In this document: positions 1 through 5,109 of the stretch, piece after piece
How the letters are laid out: every line of letters begins with the position of its first letter
Position numbering within the stretch: the stretch's first letter is position 1
UHGV virus genome: UHGV-0388354
Reading direction: 5' to 3' (one strand)
DNA from: a virus
DNA: 5,109 nt
The notes under the pieces: model-generated
Told to the model about the DNA's origin: nothing
The model's input: the letters and a program-made list of their open reading frames with translations, nothing else
The model's database searches: none
Program-made: the position numbers and the translations under genes

Positions 1-70
1 CTCTTTTGAGGTGGGGGGCAATGGCTTTGCCGAACAAGTCCTTCGGACTGCCCCCCCGCCCGTTAATATC
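1..70. repeat. 3' half of the junction-spanning palindrome (G-rich arm), including a small internal hairpin at 37-49
   Basis: Partner of 5061-5109 as described there. Within the asymmetric internal loop, 37-41 (agtcc) pairs with 45-49 (ggact) around loop ttc. G6 and C7 homopolymer runs occur only here, in an otherwise AT-rich genome. Confidence 0.65.
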
Positions 71-81
71 ACGATAGAGAA

Positions 82-115
82 TGGCGATTACCTATTACTT
101 GACATGTAATCGCCA
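82..115. repeat. Perfect 10-bp inverted repeat (tggcgattac / gtaatcgcca) with 14-nt loop
   Basis: 82-91 is the exact reverse complement of 106-115. The loop 92-105 (ctattacttgacat) contains TTGACA (99-104). The repeat lies in the only large non-coding region. Confidence 0.6.
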
Positions 116-118
116 AGT

Positions 119-148
119 GACACCACGATACAAATACATAGTGGTGTT
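119..148. repeat. Second hairpin (7-bp stem acaccac/gtggtgt plus G-T closing pair, 14-nt loop)
   Basis: 120-126 is the reverse complement of 141-147, and 119/148 form a g-t pair. It lies 4 nt after the previous hairpin. Confidence 0.4.
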
Positions 149-170
149 GCCTATTCAAATAATTTGTAGT

Positions 171-178
171 ACATTTGT
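171..178 (+). promoter_or_regulatory. Candidate Bacteroidetes-type -7 promoter element TAnnTTTG (tacatttg) upstream of rep
   Basis: Exact match to the Bacteroides sigma-A(B) -7 consensus TAnnTTTG, 78 nt upstream of the Rep ATG. A near-match TAatTTGt sits at 160-167. Only a partial -33 (gTTG at 146-149) is present. Host phylum is not established, so this is weak. Confidence 0.2.
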
Positions 179-193
179 GCCATGAGCCGATAA

Positions 194-216
194 CGCTTGA
201 TAGTTAAGATTATCAA
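194..216 (+). other. phiX174-origin-like motif CTTGATAgTTAA within a small 6-bp inverted repeat (ttgata/tatcaa); candidate Rep nick site
   Basis: 196-209 (cttgatagttaaga) resembles the phiX174 gpA origin core cAACTTG^ATATTAATAAC, sharing CTTGATA and then TTAA. It lies 55 nt upstream of the rep ATG. 197-202 is the reverse complement of 211-216. A 7-mer match alone is not statistically significant. Confidence 0.2.
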
Positions 217-255
217 AGCCTGCTTTTGGACTAAACTTATAACTCATTCTAGCAA

Positions 256-1194
256 ATGCAATGCGTTAACAAAATACAAGTTTTGAACCCCAAGACTCAT
301 AAATTTATTAAAGTGCCCTGCGGTACTTGTTACGCTTGTCAAAGCAATAAGCGATCGTCTTGGATGTTCCGTAATACAGTTGAATTACAGTATTGCAAAT
401 CTGCGTTCTTCTGTACTCTCACGTACAATGATACTGCCTTACTAGGTCTTCCGTATCACGGTGCGTCTAACTTGCGTATGCCCTTGAAATATCACTATCA
501 ACGCTGGTTGAAACGTCTTAGAAAGGCGTTACAGCCTGCCAAGGTTAGATATTTCCTTTGCCACGAGTATGGTGATGAGTCTTTTCGCCCTCATTATCAT
601 GCACTGCTGTATTTAGACACTGATATGTCTCTTACAGATATGCGCCGTATTATATCTGATACTTGGCGGTATGGTAATATCACCTGCGATTTTGTTTCGC
701 CTGCTCGCATTCATTATTTGACTAAGTACGTTACTAAACAGTTTCGTCAAGTCAAGAGTTCAGGACGGACTGTAGATTTTATATTTTCTCATACGTGGGA
801 TAATAGAGATCTTCAGCATCGTTATATTCTTGAATACTACCTCAAACGATACAGTTTTGTTGTAGCTAGTCAAGGCTTAGGTTGTCAGCTCCTGCGTGAG
901 CCTGCTTTTATACGTTGGTTTTGGGATCATCTTATTATAGGTGAGTCCTATCCTACTTATGTTATCGGAGGTCGTTCTTTTGCTCTACCTCGTATATACC
1001 TGCGTAAGTTGGTACCCGAGTTGTGGAGAGATGAGATTTCTCCCGATATATCGCCCGAGGCTATATCAGCCCAATTGTCCGAAATCGCGTCTGACGCTAA
1101 TCTCACCGTAAAACAGTATATAGATAACGCGCGCTATATACAAGAGCGTAAGTCTCAAATCATCCGCGCTAATAACAAAAAATCCCCTTTATAA
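256..1194 (+). CDS. VP4: Rolling-circle replication initiation protein (Microviridae VP4 / gpA-like, HUH endonuclease)
   Basis: 312-aa ORF. RCR motif I is FFCTLTY (nt 406-426). Motif II is the HUH triplet H-Y-H in PHYHALLYL (nt 592-600). Motif III is YLTKYVTK (nt 715-738), with two catalytic tyrosines spaced as in phiX174 gpA (YxxKYxxK). The N-terminal VPCGTCYACQ...SW..R matches the conserved PCGxCxxC...S..W..R of gokushovirus VP4. Length is typical for the family. Confidence 0.93.
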   Translation: MQCVNKIQVLNPKTHKFIKVPCGTCYACQSNKRSSWMFRNTVELQYCKSAFFCTLTYNDTALLGLPYHGASNLRMPLKYHYQRWLKRLRKALQPAKVRYFLCHEYGDESFRPHYHALLYLDTDMSLTDMRRIISDTWRYGNITCDFVSPARIHYLTKYVTKQFRQVKSSGRTVDFIFSHTWDNRDLQHRYILEYYLKRYSFVVASQGLGCQLLREPAFIRWFWDHLIIGESYPTYVIGGRSFALPRIYLRKLVPELWRDEISPDISPEAISAQLSEIASDANLTVKQYIDNARYIQERKSQIIRANNKKSPL

Positions 1195-1196
1195 CT

Positions 1197-1325
1197 ATGA
1201 GTTTTCTCAAGCCTAAAATCGGATTCTTCGCAAAGTTGCGTAAGTTCCGCATCCCGATCATTCTTCTGCTACTTGCTGGAGTATTGGTCTGTTTTTCCTT
1301 TGGTTGGTCTGTAATCTTAATCTAG
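1197..1325 (+). CDS. Small single-pass membrane protein (42 aa), basic N-terminus plus C-terminal TM helix; candidate lysis/membrane protein
   Basis: Absent from the supplied track (too short) but translated by hand: MSFLKPKIGFFAKLRKFRIPIILLLLAGVLVCFSFGWSVILI*. The ATG lies 2 nt after the Rep stop and the TAG stop (1323-1325) lies 7 nt before the next ATG, so the ORF exactly fills the 138-nt gap. The first 18 residues carry six Lys/Arg, followed by a roughly 23-residue uncharged hydrophobic segment. Caveat: T-rich DNA yields hydrophobic ORFs easily. Confidence 0.45.
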   Translation: MSFLKPKIGFFAKLRKFRIPIILLLLAGVLVCFSFGWSVILI

Positions 1326-1332
1326 ATCTGTT

Positions 1333-1731
1333 ATGAACACTTGTAAGTACCGAAACAATCCGTTTAACATTCGCTACAATCCTGCGAATAATTGGAAAGG
1401 TCAAACAGAACCTAAGAATGGATTCTGTCAGTTTTCAGAATTGAAGTACGGTGTTCGTGCTGCTTTCCTGCTGGTGTTTAACTATCGTAATCTTCACGAT
1501 GCGACAACTCCTCGTGATATAATACGATATTGGGCGCCCAAGGAAGACGGTAATGATACGTCAGCTTATATAGACTTTGTCGGCCAGCTTATCAATGAAG
1601 ATGAGCCAATAGATACTACTTTAGAGTATCTTATACTTCTTTACTCTATGTGGAAAGTAGAGCAAGGCTGGTGTCCTAGCCTTTGGGAGTTCGCCACACT
1701 TTTGAATTCGTCACTAATAGAAGATCTATAA
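1333..1731 (+). CDS. Conserved hypothetical phage protein (132 aa) with NPxNIR..NNWxG..FxxF..GxRA..IIxRWAP..E..NDT.AYI.FV signature
   Basis: The ORF sits in the intergenic-free slot between Rep and VP1, with its stop 6 nt before the VP1 ATG. The motif string NPFNIRYNPANNWKGQ...GFCQFSELKYGVRAAFLLVFNY...DIIRYWAPKEDGNDTSAYIDFV matches, from memory, a widespread phage domain of uncharacterised function often found at the N-terminus of tailed-phage structural proteins. It is net acidic, so it is not a J/VP5-like basic DNA-binding protein. Confidence 0.7.
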   Translation: MNTCKYRNNPFNIRYNPANNWKGQTEPKNGFCQFSELKYGVRAAFLLVFNYRNLHDATTPRDIIRYWAPKEDGNDTSAYIDFVGQLINEDEPIDTTLEYLILLYSMWKVEQGWCPSLWEFATLLNSSLIEDL

Positions 1732-1737
1732 ACAACT

Positions 1738-3633
1738 ATGCCAAATCTAACTAAGTATTCACTAGATCATGAAGTAAGATCTAGTTTTGAGATGGGTCAA
1801 TTGATCCCATTTTTGTGCCAGGAGGTTGTGCCTGGCGATAAGTATCGCGTACAGTCTAGTACACTTGTGCGCTTACAGCCTATGCTCTCGCCACTGATGC
1901 ACCGTCTTGATTATTATCAGAGGTACTATTATGTGCCTTATAGGTTGCTTATACCTCACTATGAGCAATTACTTACTGACCCTGATAGTAAGTATGTAGT
2001 GCCATCTATGGATAAGTATCTTCAGTTTAAGTCCAAGAAGTTTAAGGATTTATTTGCTGAAAAACCATTGTTGGAGTATTTCGGTCTTGCTACATCAAAT
2101 GGTGAAGCCGATCCTACTAATGTGCTTAAGGATCTTAATGCGACTCCCTTACTTGCTTACTACCTTATATATAATCATTATTATATGAGGTCAGACCTTG
2201 ATAAGCGGTATATTGACCAGCTCCGCCCCGAGAATTTTGAGTCTGCTGAGTTGCGTCAATACATTGGTGATGTTATGAATGTCAACGAAGGACTTGATTA
2301 TTTCACCAGCGCTAAGACATCTACTCAGTATGGTAATATGGTTCAGCTTGATATGAACGGTGACAATACTATTACTGTGCCTGAGATGCGTCTCGCTGAG
2401 CGTTTGCAGTCTTTCCGTGAGCGTCTCCTGCGTGTTGGTGGTAAGTATGTTAATTATATTAAGGAGTTTTTTGACGTTGAACCCCTTGACGCTCGTGTAC
2501 AGATTCCGAAGTATCTCGGTGGTGATTCTTACGTCCTTAATGTATCTGATGTAGATCAAACTGCTCCGTCTGATCTTGGATCGGTTGGTGAGAGTTACGG
2601 AAAATCGGTATCAGTTAATCGTACTGGGTCTATACAGTATGATGTGTATGAGCATGGTCTGATTATTGGTTTACACTTTGTCCGCCCTCGTCCGTCTAAT
2701 ATCGGTGGTTGTCCTAAGTTGTTTACTCGCCGTAATTACTTTGATTTCTTCAATCCCCACTTTTCGGCTCTTGGTTATCAAGAGATAGAAGCGCGTGAAT
2801 TGGACGTTACTCGTCCTAAGACTGAGACTTTTGGCTATGTTCCTAGATATGATGATTATAGATATGGCAATGATGTTGTTAGTGGTGATTTTCGTCGGTC
2901 TCTTAATTATTGGCATCTATCGAGAGATATTTCCAAGGAGCGACTATCAGTACCTTTTGTGACGTGCCGTCCAGATAATCGTATATTTTCTTATGAGGGT
3001 GATAATGGTAGAGTTGAGTTATATTATTTCTCAGGTCATGCGGATCACGTTCTGAAGAATGGTAAATCACAGCGTATTACTGTAGATGGTTTTCTTTGGA
3101 TGCCTATAAATTCGGTTTCCGTAGGTTCAGAGGTTAAACTTAAGAATTATGAATACGATCAGATCGGTGATGATTCTGAAGCTAACTTTATTGAGACAGT
3201 TAAGATTAATGTCTTATTGCCTAGAGAATCTACCGCTATTGTACCAGAGTATGATTCTAAGAGAGACGAAACTAAATTTGATTATGCTCATGAACCTGTT
3301 GAATTGACCACTGCTGATAAGGTTTTTGAAATGGAGTTTTCTGGTGGACATGAAGGGGGCTATTCTTCTCGTGTGCTGGTAGCAACTTGTGCAGATAAGG
3401 TAGGTACATTTATAATTTGCTCTGTTAAACCACAGCTAGGCCCAAATCTTGATACTGTTGAAGAAGTACTACAAGAGGTTGATCAGTTGCGTGCTATAAG
3501 TGGTAGAGTTATTGGCTTTGCTAGTTATCATAAGTCTGGACACCTAGATAACAATCATGTGCTGTCTGTTACTTATAATAATGTTGACGTACTTCGTCCG
3601 CTGGCTCGTTATGATGGTAATGTTTTAAGGTGA
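1738..3633 (+). CDS. VP1: Major capsid protein VP1 (Microviridae, gokushovirus-type)
   Basis: 631-aa ORF. The N-terminal region KYSLDHEVRSSFEMGQLIPFLCQEVVPGDKYRV...LVRLQPMLSPLMHRLDYYQRYYYVPYRLL closely follows the conserved gokushovirus VP1 N-terminus (..SLSH..L.CDMGELVPI...E.LPGD......L.RL.P...P.MHR.D.....FFVPYRLLW). The size lies in the 530-780 aa VP1 range. Strong third-position T bias is typical of Microviridae. Confidence 0.95.
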   Translation: MPNLTKYSLDHEVRSSFEMGQLIPFLCQEVVPGDKYRVQSSTLVRLQPMLSPLMHRLDYYQRYYYVPYRLLIPHYEQLLTDPDSKYVVPSMDKYLQFKSKKFKDLFAEKPLLEYFGLATSNGEADPTNVLKDLNATPLLAYYLIYNHYYMRSDLDKRYIDQLRPENFESAELRQYIGDVMNVNEGLDYFTSAKTSTQYGNMVQLDMNGDNTITVPEMRLAERLQSFRERLLRVGGKYVNYIKEFFDVEPLDARVQIPKYLGGDSYVLNVSDVDQTAPSDLGSVGESYGKSVSVNRTGSIQYDVYEHGLIIGLHFVRPRPSNIGGCPKLFTRRNYFDFFNPHFSALGYQEIEARELDVTRPKTETFGYVPRYDDYRYGNDVVSGDFRRSLNYWHLSRDISKERLSVPFVTCRPDNRIFSYEGDNGRVELYYFSGHADHVLKNGKSQRITVDGFLWMPINSVSVGSEVKLKNYEYDQIGDDSEANFIETVKINVLLPRESTAIVPEYDSKRDETKFDYAHEPVELTTADKVFEMEFSGGHEGGYSSRVLVATCADKVGTFIICSVKPQLGPNLDTVEEVLQEVDQLRAISGRVIGFASYHKSGHLDNNHVLSVTYNNVDVLRPLARYDGNVLR

Positions 3634-3639
3634 TAGATT

Positions 3640-4608
3640 ATGGATCCCGCTACTATTGCAGGTTTAGCAGGTGCAGGTGCTAGTCTTGTCGGTGGTCTTG
3701 TTAATAATGCTTGGGCTGATGCTCGTACTGATAAGCAGTTTAAGCAGATGAATGAGATGCAGGATAAGATGAACGCATATAATGCGCCTGTTGCTCAAAT
3801 GGCTCGATTGCGTGAAGCTGGATTGAACCCTAATCTTGTGTATGCCAATGGCGGTGCTGTTATACAGTCCGCTGTTGGTAATGCTCCACAGCCTGCCCAT
3901 ACTACTCCGATTGATACTCAGGGAGTGTTACAGATGGTACAAACTATTGTCGGTGCTATGCTTGAAAAGGATAAGATACAAGCTCAGAAAGATGTTACGC
4001 AGATGCAGACTCAGTCCAATGAAAAGGTTGCTGAAGGTCATGATACTACTCAGAAAGAGGTTACAGGTATGCAGACTCAGTCTAATGAAAAGATTTCGAC
4101 TGAACGTAATGAGACTGAAAAAGGTATTGCAGATGAGAATCGCAAAGAGAATGTACGTCAGTTTAATGAGACTATGAAGCAACGGATTAGTGAATTTAAC
4201 GCTCGGATTAATCTTGATCGTTTGATAGGATCATATCAAATTAAGAAGATCAATTCGGAGGTCGCTGTTAATCGTATTAGAATGAGTATCGAACAGGATC
4301 AACTATCAATGTCTAAGGCTATGCACAACGTTGAATTAGATTCTGCTTTGGATTCGTTGAATATGCAGAAGTTGCGGTCTTTTATGTCTGTTCCTTATCA
4401 TTTGGAGTCTAAAGACGTTTATCTTTTCATCTCTAATGAGCTCGGTGTATCCGAGTTTTCAAAAACTAAGGCTGAGGAGCTTGCGAAGATGCACAACGAT
4501 ATAATTGATAGACGGATGAAAGATGCCGATTTGTCGACTATGCCGTTGTCTGTTTATTGGGATGCTGTTTTCGGTCCTGTCAAAGATTTGGTGTCTATCT
4601 CGAAGTAG
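3640..4608 (+). CDS. VP2: Minor capsid / DNA pilot protein VP2-like
   Basis: 322-aa ORF immediately after VP1. The Gly/Ala-rich N-terminus (IAGLAGAGASLVGGLVNN), followed by NAPVAQMARLREAGLNPNLVY, matches the conserved VP2 pilot-protein N-terminal pattern (NAP..Q..R...AGLNP). The remainder is Q/E/K-rich and predicted helical, with a tandem repeat. An SD-like AAGGTGA (3627-3633) lies 6 nt upstream of the ATG. Confidence 0.85.
   Translation: MDPATIAGLAGAGASLVGGLVNNAWADARTDKQFKQMNEMQDKMNAYNAPVAQMARLREAGLNPNLVYANGGAVIQSAVGNAPQPAHTTPIDTQGVLQMVQTIVGAMLEKDKIQAQKDVTQMQTQSNEKVAEGHDTTQKEVTGMQTQSNEKISTERNETEKGIADENRKENVRQFNETMKQRISEFNARINLDRLIGSYQIKKINSEVAVNRIRMSIEQDQLSMSKAMHNVELDSALDSLNMQKLRSFMSVPYHLESKDVYLFISNELGVSEFSKTKAEELAKMHNDIIDRRMKDADLSTMPLSVYWDAVFGPVKDLVSISK
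3985..4095 (+). repeat. Intragenic imperfect tandem repeat in VP2 (45-nt unit, 66-nt period, about 40/45 identical)
   Basis: Unit 1 (3985-4029) is cagaaagatgttacgcagatgcagactcagtccaatgaaaaggtt. Unit 2 (4051-4095) is cagaaagaggttacaggtatgcagactcagtctaatgaaaagatt. At protein level, QKDVTQMQTQSNEKV is followed 22 aa later by QKEVTGMQTQSNEKI, and a third degenerate unit follows. Confidence 0.8.
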
Positions 4609-4612
4609 TTTA

Positions 4613-4620
4613 CTATCTTT
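4613..4620 (+). promoter_or_regulatory. Candidate TAnnTTTG -7 element (tatctttg) in the VP2-to-small-ORF gap
   Basis: Exact TAnnTTTG match 25 nt upstream of ATG 4645. The nearest TTTG (4577-4580) is too far upstream for canonical spacing. Confidence 0.15.
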
Positions 4621-4644
4621 GTCTTAGTAACTAATTTCTTTTAT

Positions 4645-4782
4645 ATGGATAAGATATTCAGCAGTATTTTATTTGGATTGCCTTTGTTGGTCGTTGTATT
4701 GGGTTGTATATACTTGGTATTACGGCTTGTCAAAGCTATTATTAACTTGTTTAGAAATAATCATGGAAAAGAGAAGTTATAA
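4645..4782 (+). CDS. Small single-pass membrane protein (45 aa), N-terminal TM helix with Pro plus basic C-terminus; candidate lysis/membrane protein
   Basis: Hand translation: MDKIFSSILFGLPLLVVVLGCIYLVLRLVKAIINLFRNNHGKEKL*. The ATG lies 36 nt after the VP2 stop. The TAA stop (4780-4782) overlaps the start of the downstream ORF (ATG 4763) in another frame by 20 nt. Architecture is a roughly 22-residue hydrophobic core containing a proline, then a Lys/Arg-rich tail. This is the same layout as phiX174 E at smaller scale, but no sequence similarity is claimed. Confidence 0.4.
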   Translation: MDKIFSSILFGLPLLVVVLGCIYLVLRLVKAIINLFRNNHGKEKL

Positions 4783-5062
4783 GTATGTGGCCAGAGAGCC
4801 ACAGAGTGTAGTGTCTGATACTTTACCAAATCAGACTGTAGATCTATCTATACTCGTCAAGCAGTTAATGGACGGTCAAGCCCTTAATGTCGGTTTGTCT
4901 TTGTCATCTGATTCTTCAGATACTTTGGATACTCCCGATATATCTAAGTTTGACGTGCGTCACATGACTGTAGCTGATGTGGATAATCTATTAGCTAAGG
5001 TTTCGCCGGTGAAAATTGATCCTGCGCCGGTTGAGACTGGTACGGCTCCAGTAGCCGATTGA
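4763..5062 (+). CDS. Acidic 99-aa protein in the VP3 (internal scaffold) position; function unassigned
   Basis: ORF MEKRSYKYVAREPQSVVSDTLPNQTVDLSILVKQLMDG...APVAD, with a D/E/S/T-rich C-terminal half. It occupies the position after VP2 where gokushoviruses encode VP3. The track extends it to 4673, but that start is a TTG, and the added N-terminus (MDCLCWSLYWVVYTWYYG...) is W/Y/C-rich and comes from the same T-rich stretch that encodes a cleaner TM peptide in the other frame. I therefore favour ATG 4763. I see only a weak resemblance to known VP3 motifs. Confidence 0.55.
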   Translation: MEKRSYKYVAREPQSVVSDTLPNQTVDLSILVKQLMDGQALNVGLSLSSDSSDTLDTPDISKFDVRHMTVADVDNLLAKVSPVKIDPAPVETGTAPVAD

Positions 5063-5109
5063 TGTTAATGGGTGCGGGGGCTGATGGCTTGTCCATTGCC
5101 CCCCCTCAC
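5061..5109. repeat. 5' half of a nested imperfect palindrome that continues across the window end into 1-70 (C-rich arm)
   Basis: 5061-5080 pairs with 51-70 (16 Watson-Crick pairs, 3 G-T pairs and 1 mismatch over 20 positions). 5086-5092 pairs with 34-40. 5093-5104 pairs with 13-24 (12 perfect bp: ccattgcccccc/ggggggcaatgg), extendable to 5107/8 with bulges. The 9-nt apical loop (5108-5109 plus 1-7) straddles the window boundary. The palindrome starts at the last base of the final gene's stop codon. Confidence 0.65.

Follow-up and report, generated by a model that had tools for sequence, protein, structure and literature searches.

The stretch of DNA analyzed here (UHGV-0388354, termed the window) is a complete-length microvirus genome of 5,109 nt, with every recognizable gene on the + strand. 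The gene of Rep, the rolling-circle replication initiator, is followed by a small open reading frame (ORF) of 42 codons, named ORF42, that fills the gap up to the next gene. As judged from its conservation among relatives, ORF42 is almost certainly a protein-coding gene, and it encodes a predicted tail-anchored membrane peptide. Directly downstream lies the gene of an endolysin, termed lysin, with which this peptide possibly cooperates.

The features of the window are listed below, where TM stands for transmembrane and dN/dS for the ratio of nonsynonymous to synonymous substitution rates.

230-252, no strand assigned: attachment-site (att) core GGACTAAACTTATAACTCATTCT (blastn of the window against prophage loci L013-L016 and junction sequences)
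256-1194, +: Rep (PF23343, E=3e-18; phrog_942, E=6e-50; dN/dS 0.125)
1197-1325 including the stop codon, +: ORF42, 42-codon gene for a predicted tail-anchored membrane peptide (ORF list, conservation, dN/dS 0.23)
1197-1256, +: ORF42 codons 1-20, basic and aromatic-rich N-terminal segment, predicted to be cytoplasmic (alignment A1, charge, AlphaFold2 model)
1257-1322, +: ORF42 codons 21-42, predicted single TM helix running to the C terminus without an extracytoplasmic tail (19-residue Kyte-Doolittle hydropathy, Hessa scale, AlphaFold2 model)
1333-1731, +: lysin, Enc34/PHA02564-type endolysin catalytic domain, 132 aa (phrog_873, 7Q47, Foldseek; dN/dS 0.113)
1738-3633, +: major capsid protein VP1 (PF02305, E=1e-52; phrog_514)
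3640-4608, +: DNA pilot protein, VP2/H-like (phrog_8689, E=1e-20)
4587-4621, +: promoter-like motif of Bacteroidetes type, TTTG-N-TAnnTTTG (consensus match only)
4645-4782, +: ORF45, second small membrane-protein gene, 45 codons (ORF list, hydropathy, conservation in clades A, B, and C)
4763-5062, +: VP3-like gene, ~99 aa, ATG start, 5' end overlapped by ORF45 (gene-called at 97-104 aa in prophages)

The ORF42 gene and its product

ORF42 extends on the + strand from the ATG at 1197 to the TAG at 1323-1325 and encodes MSFLKPKIGFFAKLRKFRIPIILLLLAGVLVCFSFGWSVILI. Its ATG follows the Rep stop codon (1192-1194) after 2 nt, and its own stop codon is separated by 7 nt from the lysin ATG at 1333, which confirms the placement given in an earlier, sequence-only reading of the window. 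That reading had also called the ORF unannotated, and indeed none of the five GenBank relatives (5/5) annotates it.

The ORF is found in 14 distinct nucleotide versions, in free microviruses as well as in Porphyromonas prophages, and the ATG and the length of 42 codons are conserved in 14/14. These versions stem from the window, the GenBank genomes L001-L005 (human samples), the IMG/VR contigs L006-L010, and the prophage or metagenome loci L013-L016; L004 and the window do not differ over ORF42, so L001-L005 add four further distinct versions. The stops or frameshifts in relatives that the sequence-only reading had named as evidence against a gene are not seen in these versions. The stop codon itself varies among TAG, TAA, and TGA without a change of position. 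L005 has an indel of 1 nt after the Rep stop and before the ORF42 ATG, which shifts the frame relative to Rep and leaves ORF42 intact.

Selection at the codon level, likewise named in that reading as a check, is clearly seen. In the ORF42 frame, dN/dS is 0.23 (Nei-Gojobori; codon-bootstrap 95% confidence interval 0.15-0.32). The column-shuffle null has a mean of 0.82, and 0/500 shuffles are as low as the observed value. The other two + frames have a dN/dS of 1.1 and 1.9 and contain 1-5 stops in every sequence. Both halves of ORF42 are constrained (N-terminal part 0.26, TM part 0.21); by comparison, Rep and the lysin have the values of 0.125 and 0.113 listed above. The residues M1, K7, G9, F10, F11, L14, R15, R18, P20, L23-25, A27, F35-G36-W37, and L41 are invariant in alignment A1, and nine gene-called homologues of 42 aa are present in a set of 5.8 billion proteins. 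Gap-filling ORFs of ~40 codons in microvirus genomes can be real selected genes.

ORFs also exist on the minus strand over ORF42 and the start of the lysin gene (window 1258-1404, 48 aa; L016 7934-8302, 122 aa). They are judged spurious because every recognized gene lies on the + strand. One reverse frame over ORF42 has a dN/dS of 0.36, a value that probably reflects selection acting on ORF42 itself.

The product had been described in the sequence-only reading as six Lys/Arg residues followed by one TM helix, and the predictions agree with this architecture. The six basic residues (K5, K7, K13, R15, K16, and R18) all lie within residues 1-18. Kyte-Doolittle hydropathy reaches a mean of 2.48 in the best stretch of 19 residues, and the sum on the Hessa biological scale is -2.1 kcal/mol. 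The AlphaFold2 (AF2) model consists of a helix at 8-16, a break at residue 17, and a second helix at 18-41, with a predicted local distance difference test score (pLDDT) of 85-93 over the TM segment. The charge is +6 on the N-terminal side of the TM segment and 0 on the C-terminal side. Because of this distribution and the positive-inside rule, the peptide is predicted to be tail-anchored, with a cytoplasmic N terminus and the C terminus at the periplasmic face. An amphipathic N-terminal helix was also considered, and the hydrophobic moment is low (0.15-0.38) and gives no clear amphipathy. The coding strand is T-rich (32.8% T), and hydrophobic ORFs are common on it; TM-likeness alone is therefore weak evidence, and ORF42 is judged to be more than a chance ORF because of its conservation across versions and not because of its TM character.

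The lysin gene, the relatives, and the host

The sequence-only reading had assumed that the phage has no recognized lysis gene. This assumption does not hold, since the gene at 1333-1731 encodes an Enc34/PHA02564-type endolysin. Its product matches phrog_873 ("endolysin", E=3e-23) and the endolysin catalytic domain from Hafnia phage Enc34 (PDB 7Q47, E=8e-6), whereby W67 and Y79 are aligned to Enc34 Trp79 and Tyr95. For the AF2 model of the lysin (pLDDT 74.5), 7Q47 is the sole significant Foldseek match in the PDB (probability 1.0, TM-score 0.66). The lysin is hence a member of this endolysin family in sequence and in fold. E110, nearly invariant within the motif VEQG, is the putative equivalent of the catalytic Glu131 of Enc34. 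Homologues of the lysin carry the GenBank label "P5-like structural protein."

Muralytic activity of the PHA02564 family was shown experimentally (PMC8943055, PMC7143992). In double-stranded DNA (dsDNA) phages, the PHA02564 catalytic domain is fused to a C-terminal TM domain (TMD) (PMC7143992, PMC8943055). For M4Lys from Salmonella phage BSPM4, this TMD was shown to be indispensable for lysis, and in the case of Enc34 ORF39, only the full-length protein was toxic to cells (PMC7143992, PMC8943055). Such a fusion in cis is not found in the window: the lysin stops at residue 132, and neither a signal peptide nor a TM segment was found anywhere along its length. Since it lacks both, it would require a membrane-acting partner to reach the murein. 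Peptidoglycan hydrolases of Microviridae were noted earlier as M15 peptidases, some of them beside ORFs of unknown function, and were proposed as possible endolysins (PMC3394797). In the open-access literature, no paper was found that links microviruses to PHA02564 lysins or describes ORF42.

The frame of the lysin relative to ORF42 is +1 in the window and L001, 0 in L002, L003, L005, and L022, and +2 in L016. Because this relation varies among relatives, the two are regarded as separate products. A signal-anchored lysin made as an ORF42-lysin fusion by readthrough or frameshifting was considered and rejected as a conserved mechanism, because each of the three frame relations is found among relatives and the stop codon is not constant. 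In the four genomes that have both genes in one frame, a single stop codon and 1-2 sense codons part them, and readthrough would yield a lysin with an N-terminal membrane anchor; this arrangement is not conserved.

The relatives fall into three clades defined by their relationship to the window:

Clade A (window, L001-L010, L013-L016): ORF42 of 42 aa, lysin present
Clade B (L022-L024): ORF42 homologue of 44 aa at the same place, lysin present
Clade C (L025, L027): ORF42 absent, lysin present

Rep of clade B is 72% identical to that of clade A, and its 44-aa ORF42 homologue is MFNKLPSRKIGFFGKIRRFRVPLLLLLISIVVLCFSFGWASFLI. In clade C, identity amounts to 54% for Rep and, relative to the window, to 62% for the lysin; judged by the identities of Rep, VP1, and VP3, this clade is the outgroup to the other two. 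The next outgroups, PV594030 and PV594034, have neither lysin nor ORF42. The sequence-only reading had proposed to look for an open small TM ORF at the syntenic position in related genomes, and the outcome is divided: the ORF is open in all of clade A and has its homologue in clade B, but it is absent from clade C and from distant lysin-bearing relatives. A small TM ORF upstream of the lysin was sought at this position in MG945638, OM869647, PQ006325, PQ007207, MG945180, and L026 and is not conserved there. A profile search of 1.84 billion representative proteins recovered only the cluster of ORF42 itself. By this sequence distribution, ORF42 is a lineage-restricted ORFan. Either the common ancestor of clades A and B gained it by insertion between Rep and lysin, or clade C lost it.

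Two of these relatives show further peculiarities. In L025, the pilot gene is split into ORFs of 177 aa and 204 aa, which may reflect a prophage in decay or a mistake in the assembly of the contig. The distant L017 (MG945638.1, from cattle blood) has a lysin (6000-6404) that is 44% identical to that of the window and is labeled "similar to VP3" in GenBank. In L017 alone, an ORF of 77 aa (5591-5824) that contains several hydrophobic segments precedes the lysin by 175 nt. A TM ORF of 31 aa (4804-4899) in the same genome starts with MDKI right after the pilot gene, a position that recalls ORF45.

The window is closest in GenBank to PV067921.1 (L004). Over window positions 1-1970, identity reaches 99.7% for Rep and 100% for ORF42 and lysin, whereas positions 1970-5109 with capsid, pilot, and downstream genes share only ~92% nucleotide identity. 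This mosaic pattern suggests recent recombination inside the clade. The clade is human-associated (vaginal and other human samples) and isolated among GenBank phages, with an identity to anything else of <=46% for VP1 and <=33% for Rep.

ORF42-bearing genomes are found integrated in contigs of 13-21 kb. L013-L016 lie between a fimbrillin gene and pyrD/pyrK genes, and L022 is also located beside pyrD, in a different orientation. In the set of species-representative genomes, the one match is a prophage of uncultured Porphyromonas sp. UMGS166. The phage was taken for a gokushovirus-type genome in the sequence-only reading; by its sequence context it is instead a temperate Bacteroidales (Porphyromonas) microvirus without an integrase and not a classical gokushovirus. 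Integration, the absence of an integrase gene from the genome, and short flanking direct repeats agree with the temperate Bacteroidales microvirus lifestyle (BMV/"Alpavirinae" type), a likeness that concerns lifestyle only. The att core (230-252) is present at both prophage ends as an imperfect direct repeat (L013-L016). For Bacteroidales microviruses, Xer/dif-type integration has been proposed (PMC3091885), which matches the integrase-less state seen here.

The att core lies 3 nt upstream of the Rep ATG. Integration hence shifts the noncoding region 1-229, which holds the TAnnTTTG-like motif TACATTTG at 170-177, to the far end of the prophage. Integration could silence the Rep-ORF42-lysin-VP1-VP2 block without a repressor. 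A role of ORF42 expressed in the lysogen is disfavored because Rep, ORF42, and lysin are parted in this way from the upstream noncoding region. The Bacteroidetes-type promoter pattern (TTTG-N17-23-TAnnTTTG) has two matches in the window, compared with 0.17 expected, and 4/200 shuffles reach two. One match (4587-4621) lies 24 nt upstream of ORF45 and the other (4924-4952) lies inside the VP3-like gene; none in the window precedes ORF42. A scan for sigma-70 promoters and terminators gave counts at chance level.

ORF45 encodes MDKIFSSILFGLPLLVVVLGCIYLVLRLVKAIINLFRNNHGKEKL, with a predicted N-terminal TM segment and a basic C-terminal tail, and its topology would be opposite to that of ORF42. Its best 19-residue Kyte-Doolittle mean is 2.84, and its charge is 0 on the N-terminal and +4 on the C-terminal side. 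Versions of 35-46 aa occur in all three clades, and their TM sequences diverge strongly and fall into four types. ORF45 forms 31 clusters in the protein database, all of them unnamed, and is missing, as is ORF42, from every public annotation of these genomes.

Possible roles of ORF42

A small TM gene followed by a lysin gene at a spacing of 4-7 nt is the classic layout of a lysis cassette. It is proposed, with a confidence that stays somewhat below even, that ORF42 is the membrane-acting partner of the adjacent signal-less Enc34-type endolysin, be it holin-like, as an antiholin, or as a tether in trans. This proposal is made because of the cassette-like order and spacing, because the lysin would need help across the inner membrane, and because the same catalytic domain is fused to a TMD in dsDNA phages. 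Two properties expected of a holin are found in ORF42, namely that of a small integral membrane protein with at least one TMD (as predicted) and that of a gene beside an endolysin, an arrangement seen in all clade A and clade B genomes.

ORF42 and lysin directly follow Rep and would probably share one transcript with it. As a tail-anchored helix, the peptide would enter the inner membrane of the host with its N terminus in the cytoplasm, accumulate in the membrane, and help the cytoplasmic lysin to reach the peptidoglycan. This help could take three routes. ORF42 might permeabilize the membrane itself in a holin-like manner; more probably, it would modulate or assist ORF45 as the likelier core holin; or it might hold the lysin at the membrane as a tether in trans, comparable to the C-terminal TMD that acts in cis in Enc34 and M4Lys. 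ORF45 is, by its sequence features, the better core-holin candidate because of its charged C-terminal tail, its fast sequence turnover with kept topology, and its presence in every lysin-carrying clade.

Several observations weigh against ORF42 as the partner of the lysin. Clade C keeps the lysin without ORF42, and the stop codon of Rep and the start codon of the lysin overlap there as ATGA in two independent samples (L025 7066-8384; L027 3-739). The lysin thus does not need ORF42 in every lineage, and ORF42 is not an indispensable sole lysis gene. The distant lysin-bearing microviruses (L017-L021 and L026) also have no equivalent ORF at the same place. ORF45 is found in all three clades with the charged C-terminal tail typical of holins, which ORF42 lacks: ORF42 has no charged hydrophilic C-terminal cytoplasmic domain and ends within the TM helix (…GWSVILI). 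ORF42 haplotypes and the four ORF45 TM types show no covariation and reassort freely, which disfavors a specific pairing of the two TM helices. Finally, searches of Pfam, PHROGs, and NCBIfam with ORF42, extended to E up to 10, gave no match to a family of holins, antiholins, or lysis proteins. Pfam matches to DUF5989 occur in 9/19 members of the ORF42 family, all below the gathering threshold (best E=0.024); they are located in the low-complexity stretch KKFxxxPIIxLLLL and are probably compositional. Because clade C does without ORF42 and ORF45 looks more holin-like, an accessory role (lysis timing or antiholin, extra permeabilizer, or lysin tether in trans) is favored over that of the sole holin. 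The more specific idea that ORF42 represents a minimal new holin-type class, in which a 42-aa tail-anchored single helix, alone or as a naturally split, in-trans counterpart of the Enc34/M4Lys membrane domain, delivers a signal-less endolysin across the inner membrane, is unlikely.

Among the other explanations, an accessory membrane protein unrelated to lysis is the likeliest, although it too is rather doubtful. ORF42 would then be a tuner of replication, assembly, or burst size like the phiX174 K protein, or a peptide for superinfection exclusion or host modulation. Its lineage-specific pattern, with presence in A and B and absence from C and the outgroups, suits a nonessential accessory gene; phiX174 gene K has a like position at the 3' end of rep; the phage is temperate; and ORF45 alone could provide the holin function. 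What such a role leaves unexplained is the tight juxtaposition with the endolysin, and no match to a K or exclusion family exists for ORF42. Exclusion in particular needs expression from the prophage, of which the att position and the absence of a promoter-like motif upstream of ORF42 give no sign. The sequence-only reading had instead proposed a small lysis effector resembling MS2 L; the alternative that it gave, a membrane anchor for replication or assembly, may still hold. A role in lysis remains the most plausible function, but a stand-alone single-gene lysis protein in the style of MS2 L or phiX174 E, targeting host cell-wall synthesis or an autolysis factor, is improbable. The size of ORF42 and its domain order, a basic N terminus before a hydrophobic stretch, do resemble L-like proteins, and both halves are under purifying selection. 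Such a protein would be redundant with the dedicated endolysin encoded 7 nt downstream, however, and clade C lacks it. The Leu-Ser (LS) motif and the C-terminal domain of L-like proteins are missing as well: position 33, before S/A34, is V, I, or F in 19/19 ORF42 sequences. The TM segment is C-terminal and not N-terminal as in E, and no lysis or holin family of Pfam or PHROGs is matched.

Two further explanations have little in their favor. A lack of function, with ORF42 as a chance ORF, a spacer for translational coupling of Rep and lysin, or a DNA element such as an origin, would fit the T-rich strand with its chance hydrophobic ORFs, the somewhat reduced synonymous variation in codons 9-17, and the fact that GenBank annotators never called the gene. 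It is nevertheless very improbable given that the low dN/dS is confined among the + frames to that of ORF42, that length is constant while the stop codon turns over at a fixed position, and that ORF42 survives the indel in L005. Nor does the single-stranded DNA (ssDNA) fold at ORF42 speak for a DNA element, as it is not significant (z=-1.34), its small hairpin is not conserved, and Rfam gives no match. A packaging protein like J/VP8, whose basic N terminus would bind the ssDNA and whose hydrophobic C terminus would attach to the inner capsid surface, is scarcely credible. ORF42 is small with a basic N-terminal half, and Bacteroidales microviruses have no recognized J/VP8 homologue (PMC3091885). 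Yet only 6/42 residues are basic, the uninterrupted hydrophobic helix of 22 residues is membrane-like and not a short capsid-binding tail, Microvir_J is not matched, and clade C lacks ORF42 despite the same capsid architecture.

Lysis by microviruses outside the phiX174 group is largely unexplained so far, and ORF42, the endolysin, and ORF45 form a compact candidate module that is directly testable. Provided that it acts on the membrane, ORF42 would rank with the smallest known lysis effectors or regulators of phages, and it would allow a natural test of whether PHA02564 endolysins can have their need for a TMD satisfied in trans. Should it prove to be a minimal holin, a 5-kb ssDNA microvirus would use multigene holin/endolysin lysis of the dsDNA-phage type and not a single-gene "protein antibiotic," with two tiny TM proteins of opposite topology in one lysis system.

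Comparison with known lysis systems and small membrane proteins

Holin and antiholin genes (lambda S105/S107, T4 T, and pinholin S21 68) resemble ORF42 in encoding small membrane proteins beside a signal-less cytoplasmic endolysin and in being sequence-diverse, ORFan-like, and lineage-specific. T4 holin T has a single TMD, and thus, one TMD can suffice. In contrast to these holins, ORF42 has only 42 aa, neither a hydrophilic C-terminal tail nor a periplasmic domain, and its charged part at the N terminus. It also has no conserved dual-start motif and no holin family match, is located in a 5.1-kb ssDNA microvirus, and has a sister clade with the lysin alone.

The relation to Enc34 ORF39 and M4Lys lies in the same catalytic domain, which is encoded in the gene adjoining ORF42, and in the TM element that is tied to lysis in these two proteins. 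In ORF42, however, the TM element is a separate upstream gene in variable frame and consists of one helix instead of two, and the TM elements share no sequence similarity.

MS2 L-like proteins have in common with ORF42 the short length and the basic N-terminal region followed by a hydrophobic domain. ORF42 differs from L by the absence of the LS motif, of a domain after it, and of any sequence similarity, and by the endolysin in the same genome.

Like ORF42, the E and K proteins of phiX174 are small and hydrophobic and belong to Microviridae. A proline beside the TMD is important for the function of E, and ORF42 has the invariant P20 at the start of its TM helix. E (91 aa) has an N-terminal TMD and is embedded in gene D, whereas ORF42 has a C-terminal TMD, occupies its own intergenic slot, and does not match the Pfam family of E (Microvir_lysis). 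The K gene, located where rep ends, overlaps genes A and C, whereas ORF42 overlaps neither neighbor and has no Pfam match.

Type I toxins such as TisB and Hok, as well as DUF5989 proteins, share with ORF42 a length of 30-50 aa and a charged segment combined with one TM helix. Unlike for type I toxins, no antisense RNA or toxin-antitoxin context is found at ORF42. In functional terms, these likenesses and differences still leave ORF42 within the broad class of phage membrane proteins, small and diverse in sequence, that belong to lysis cassettes.

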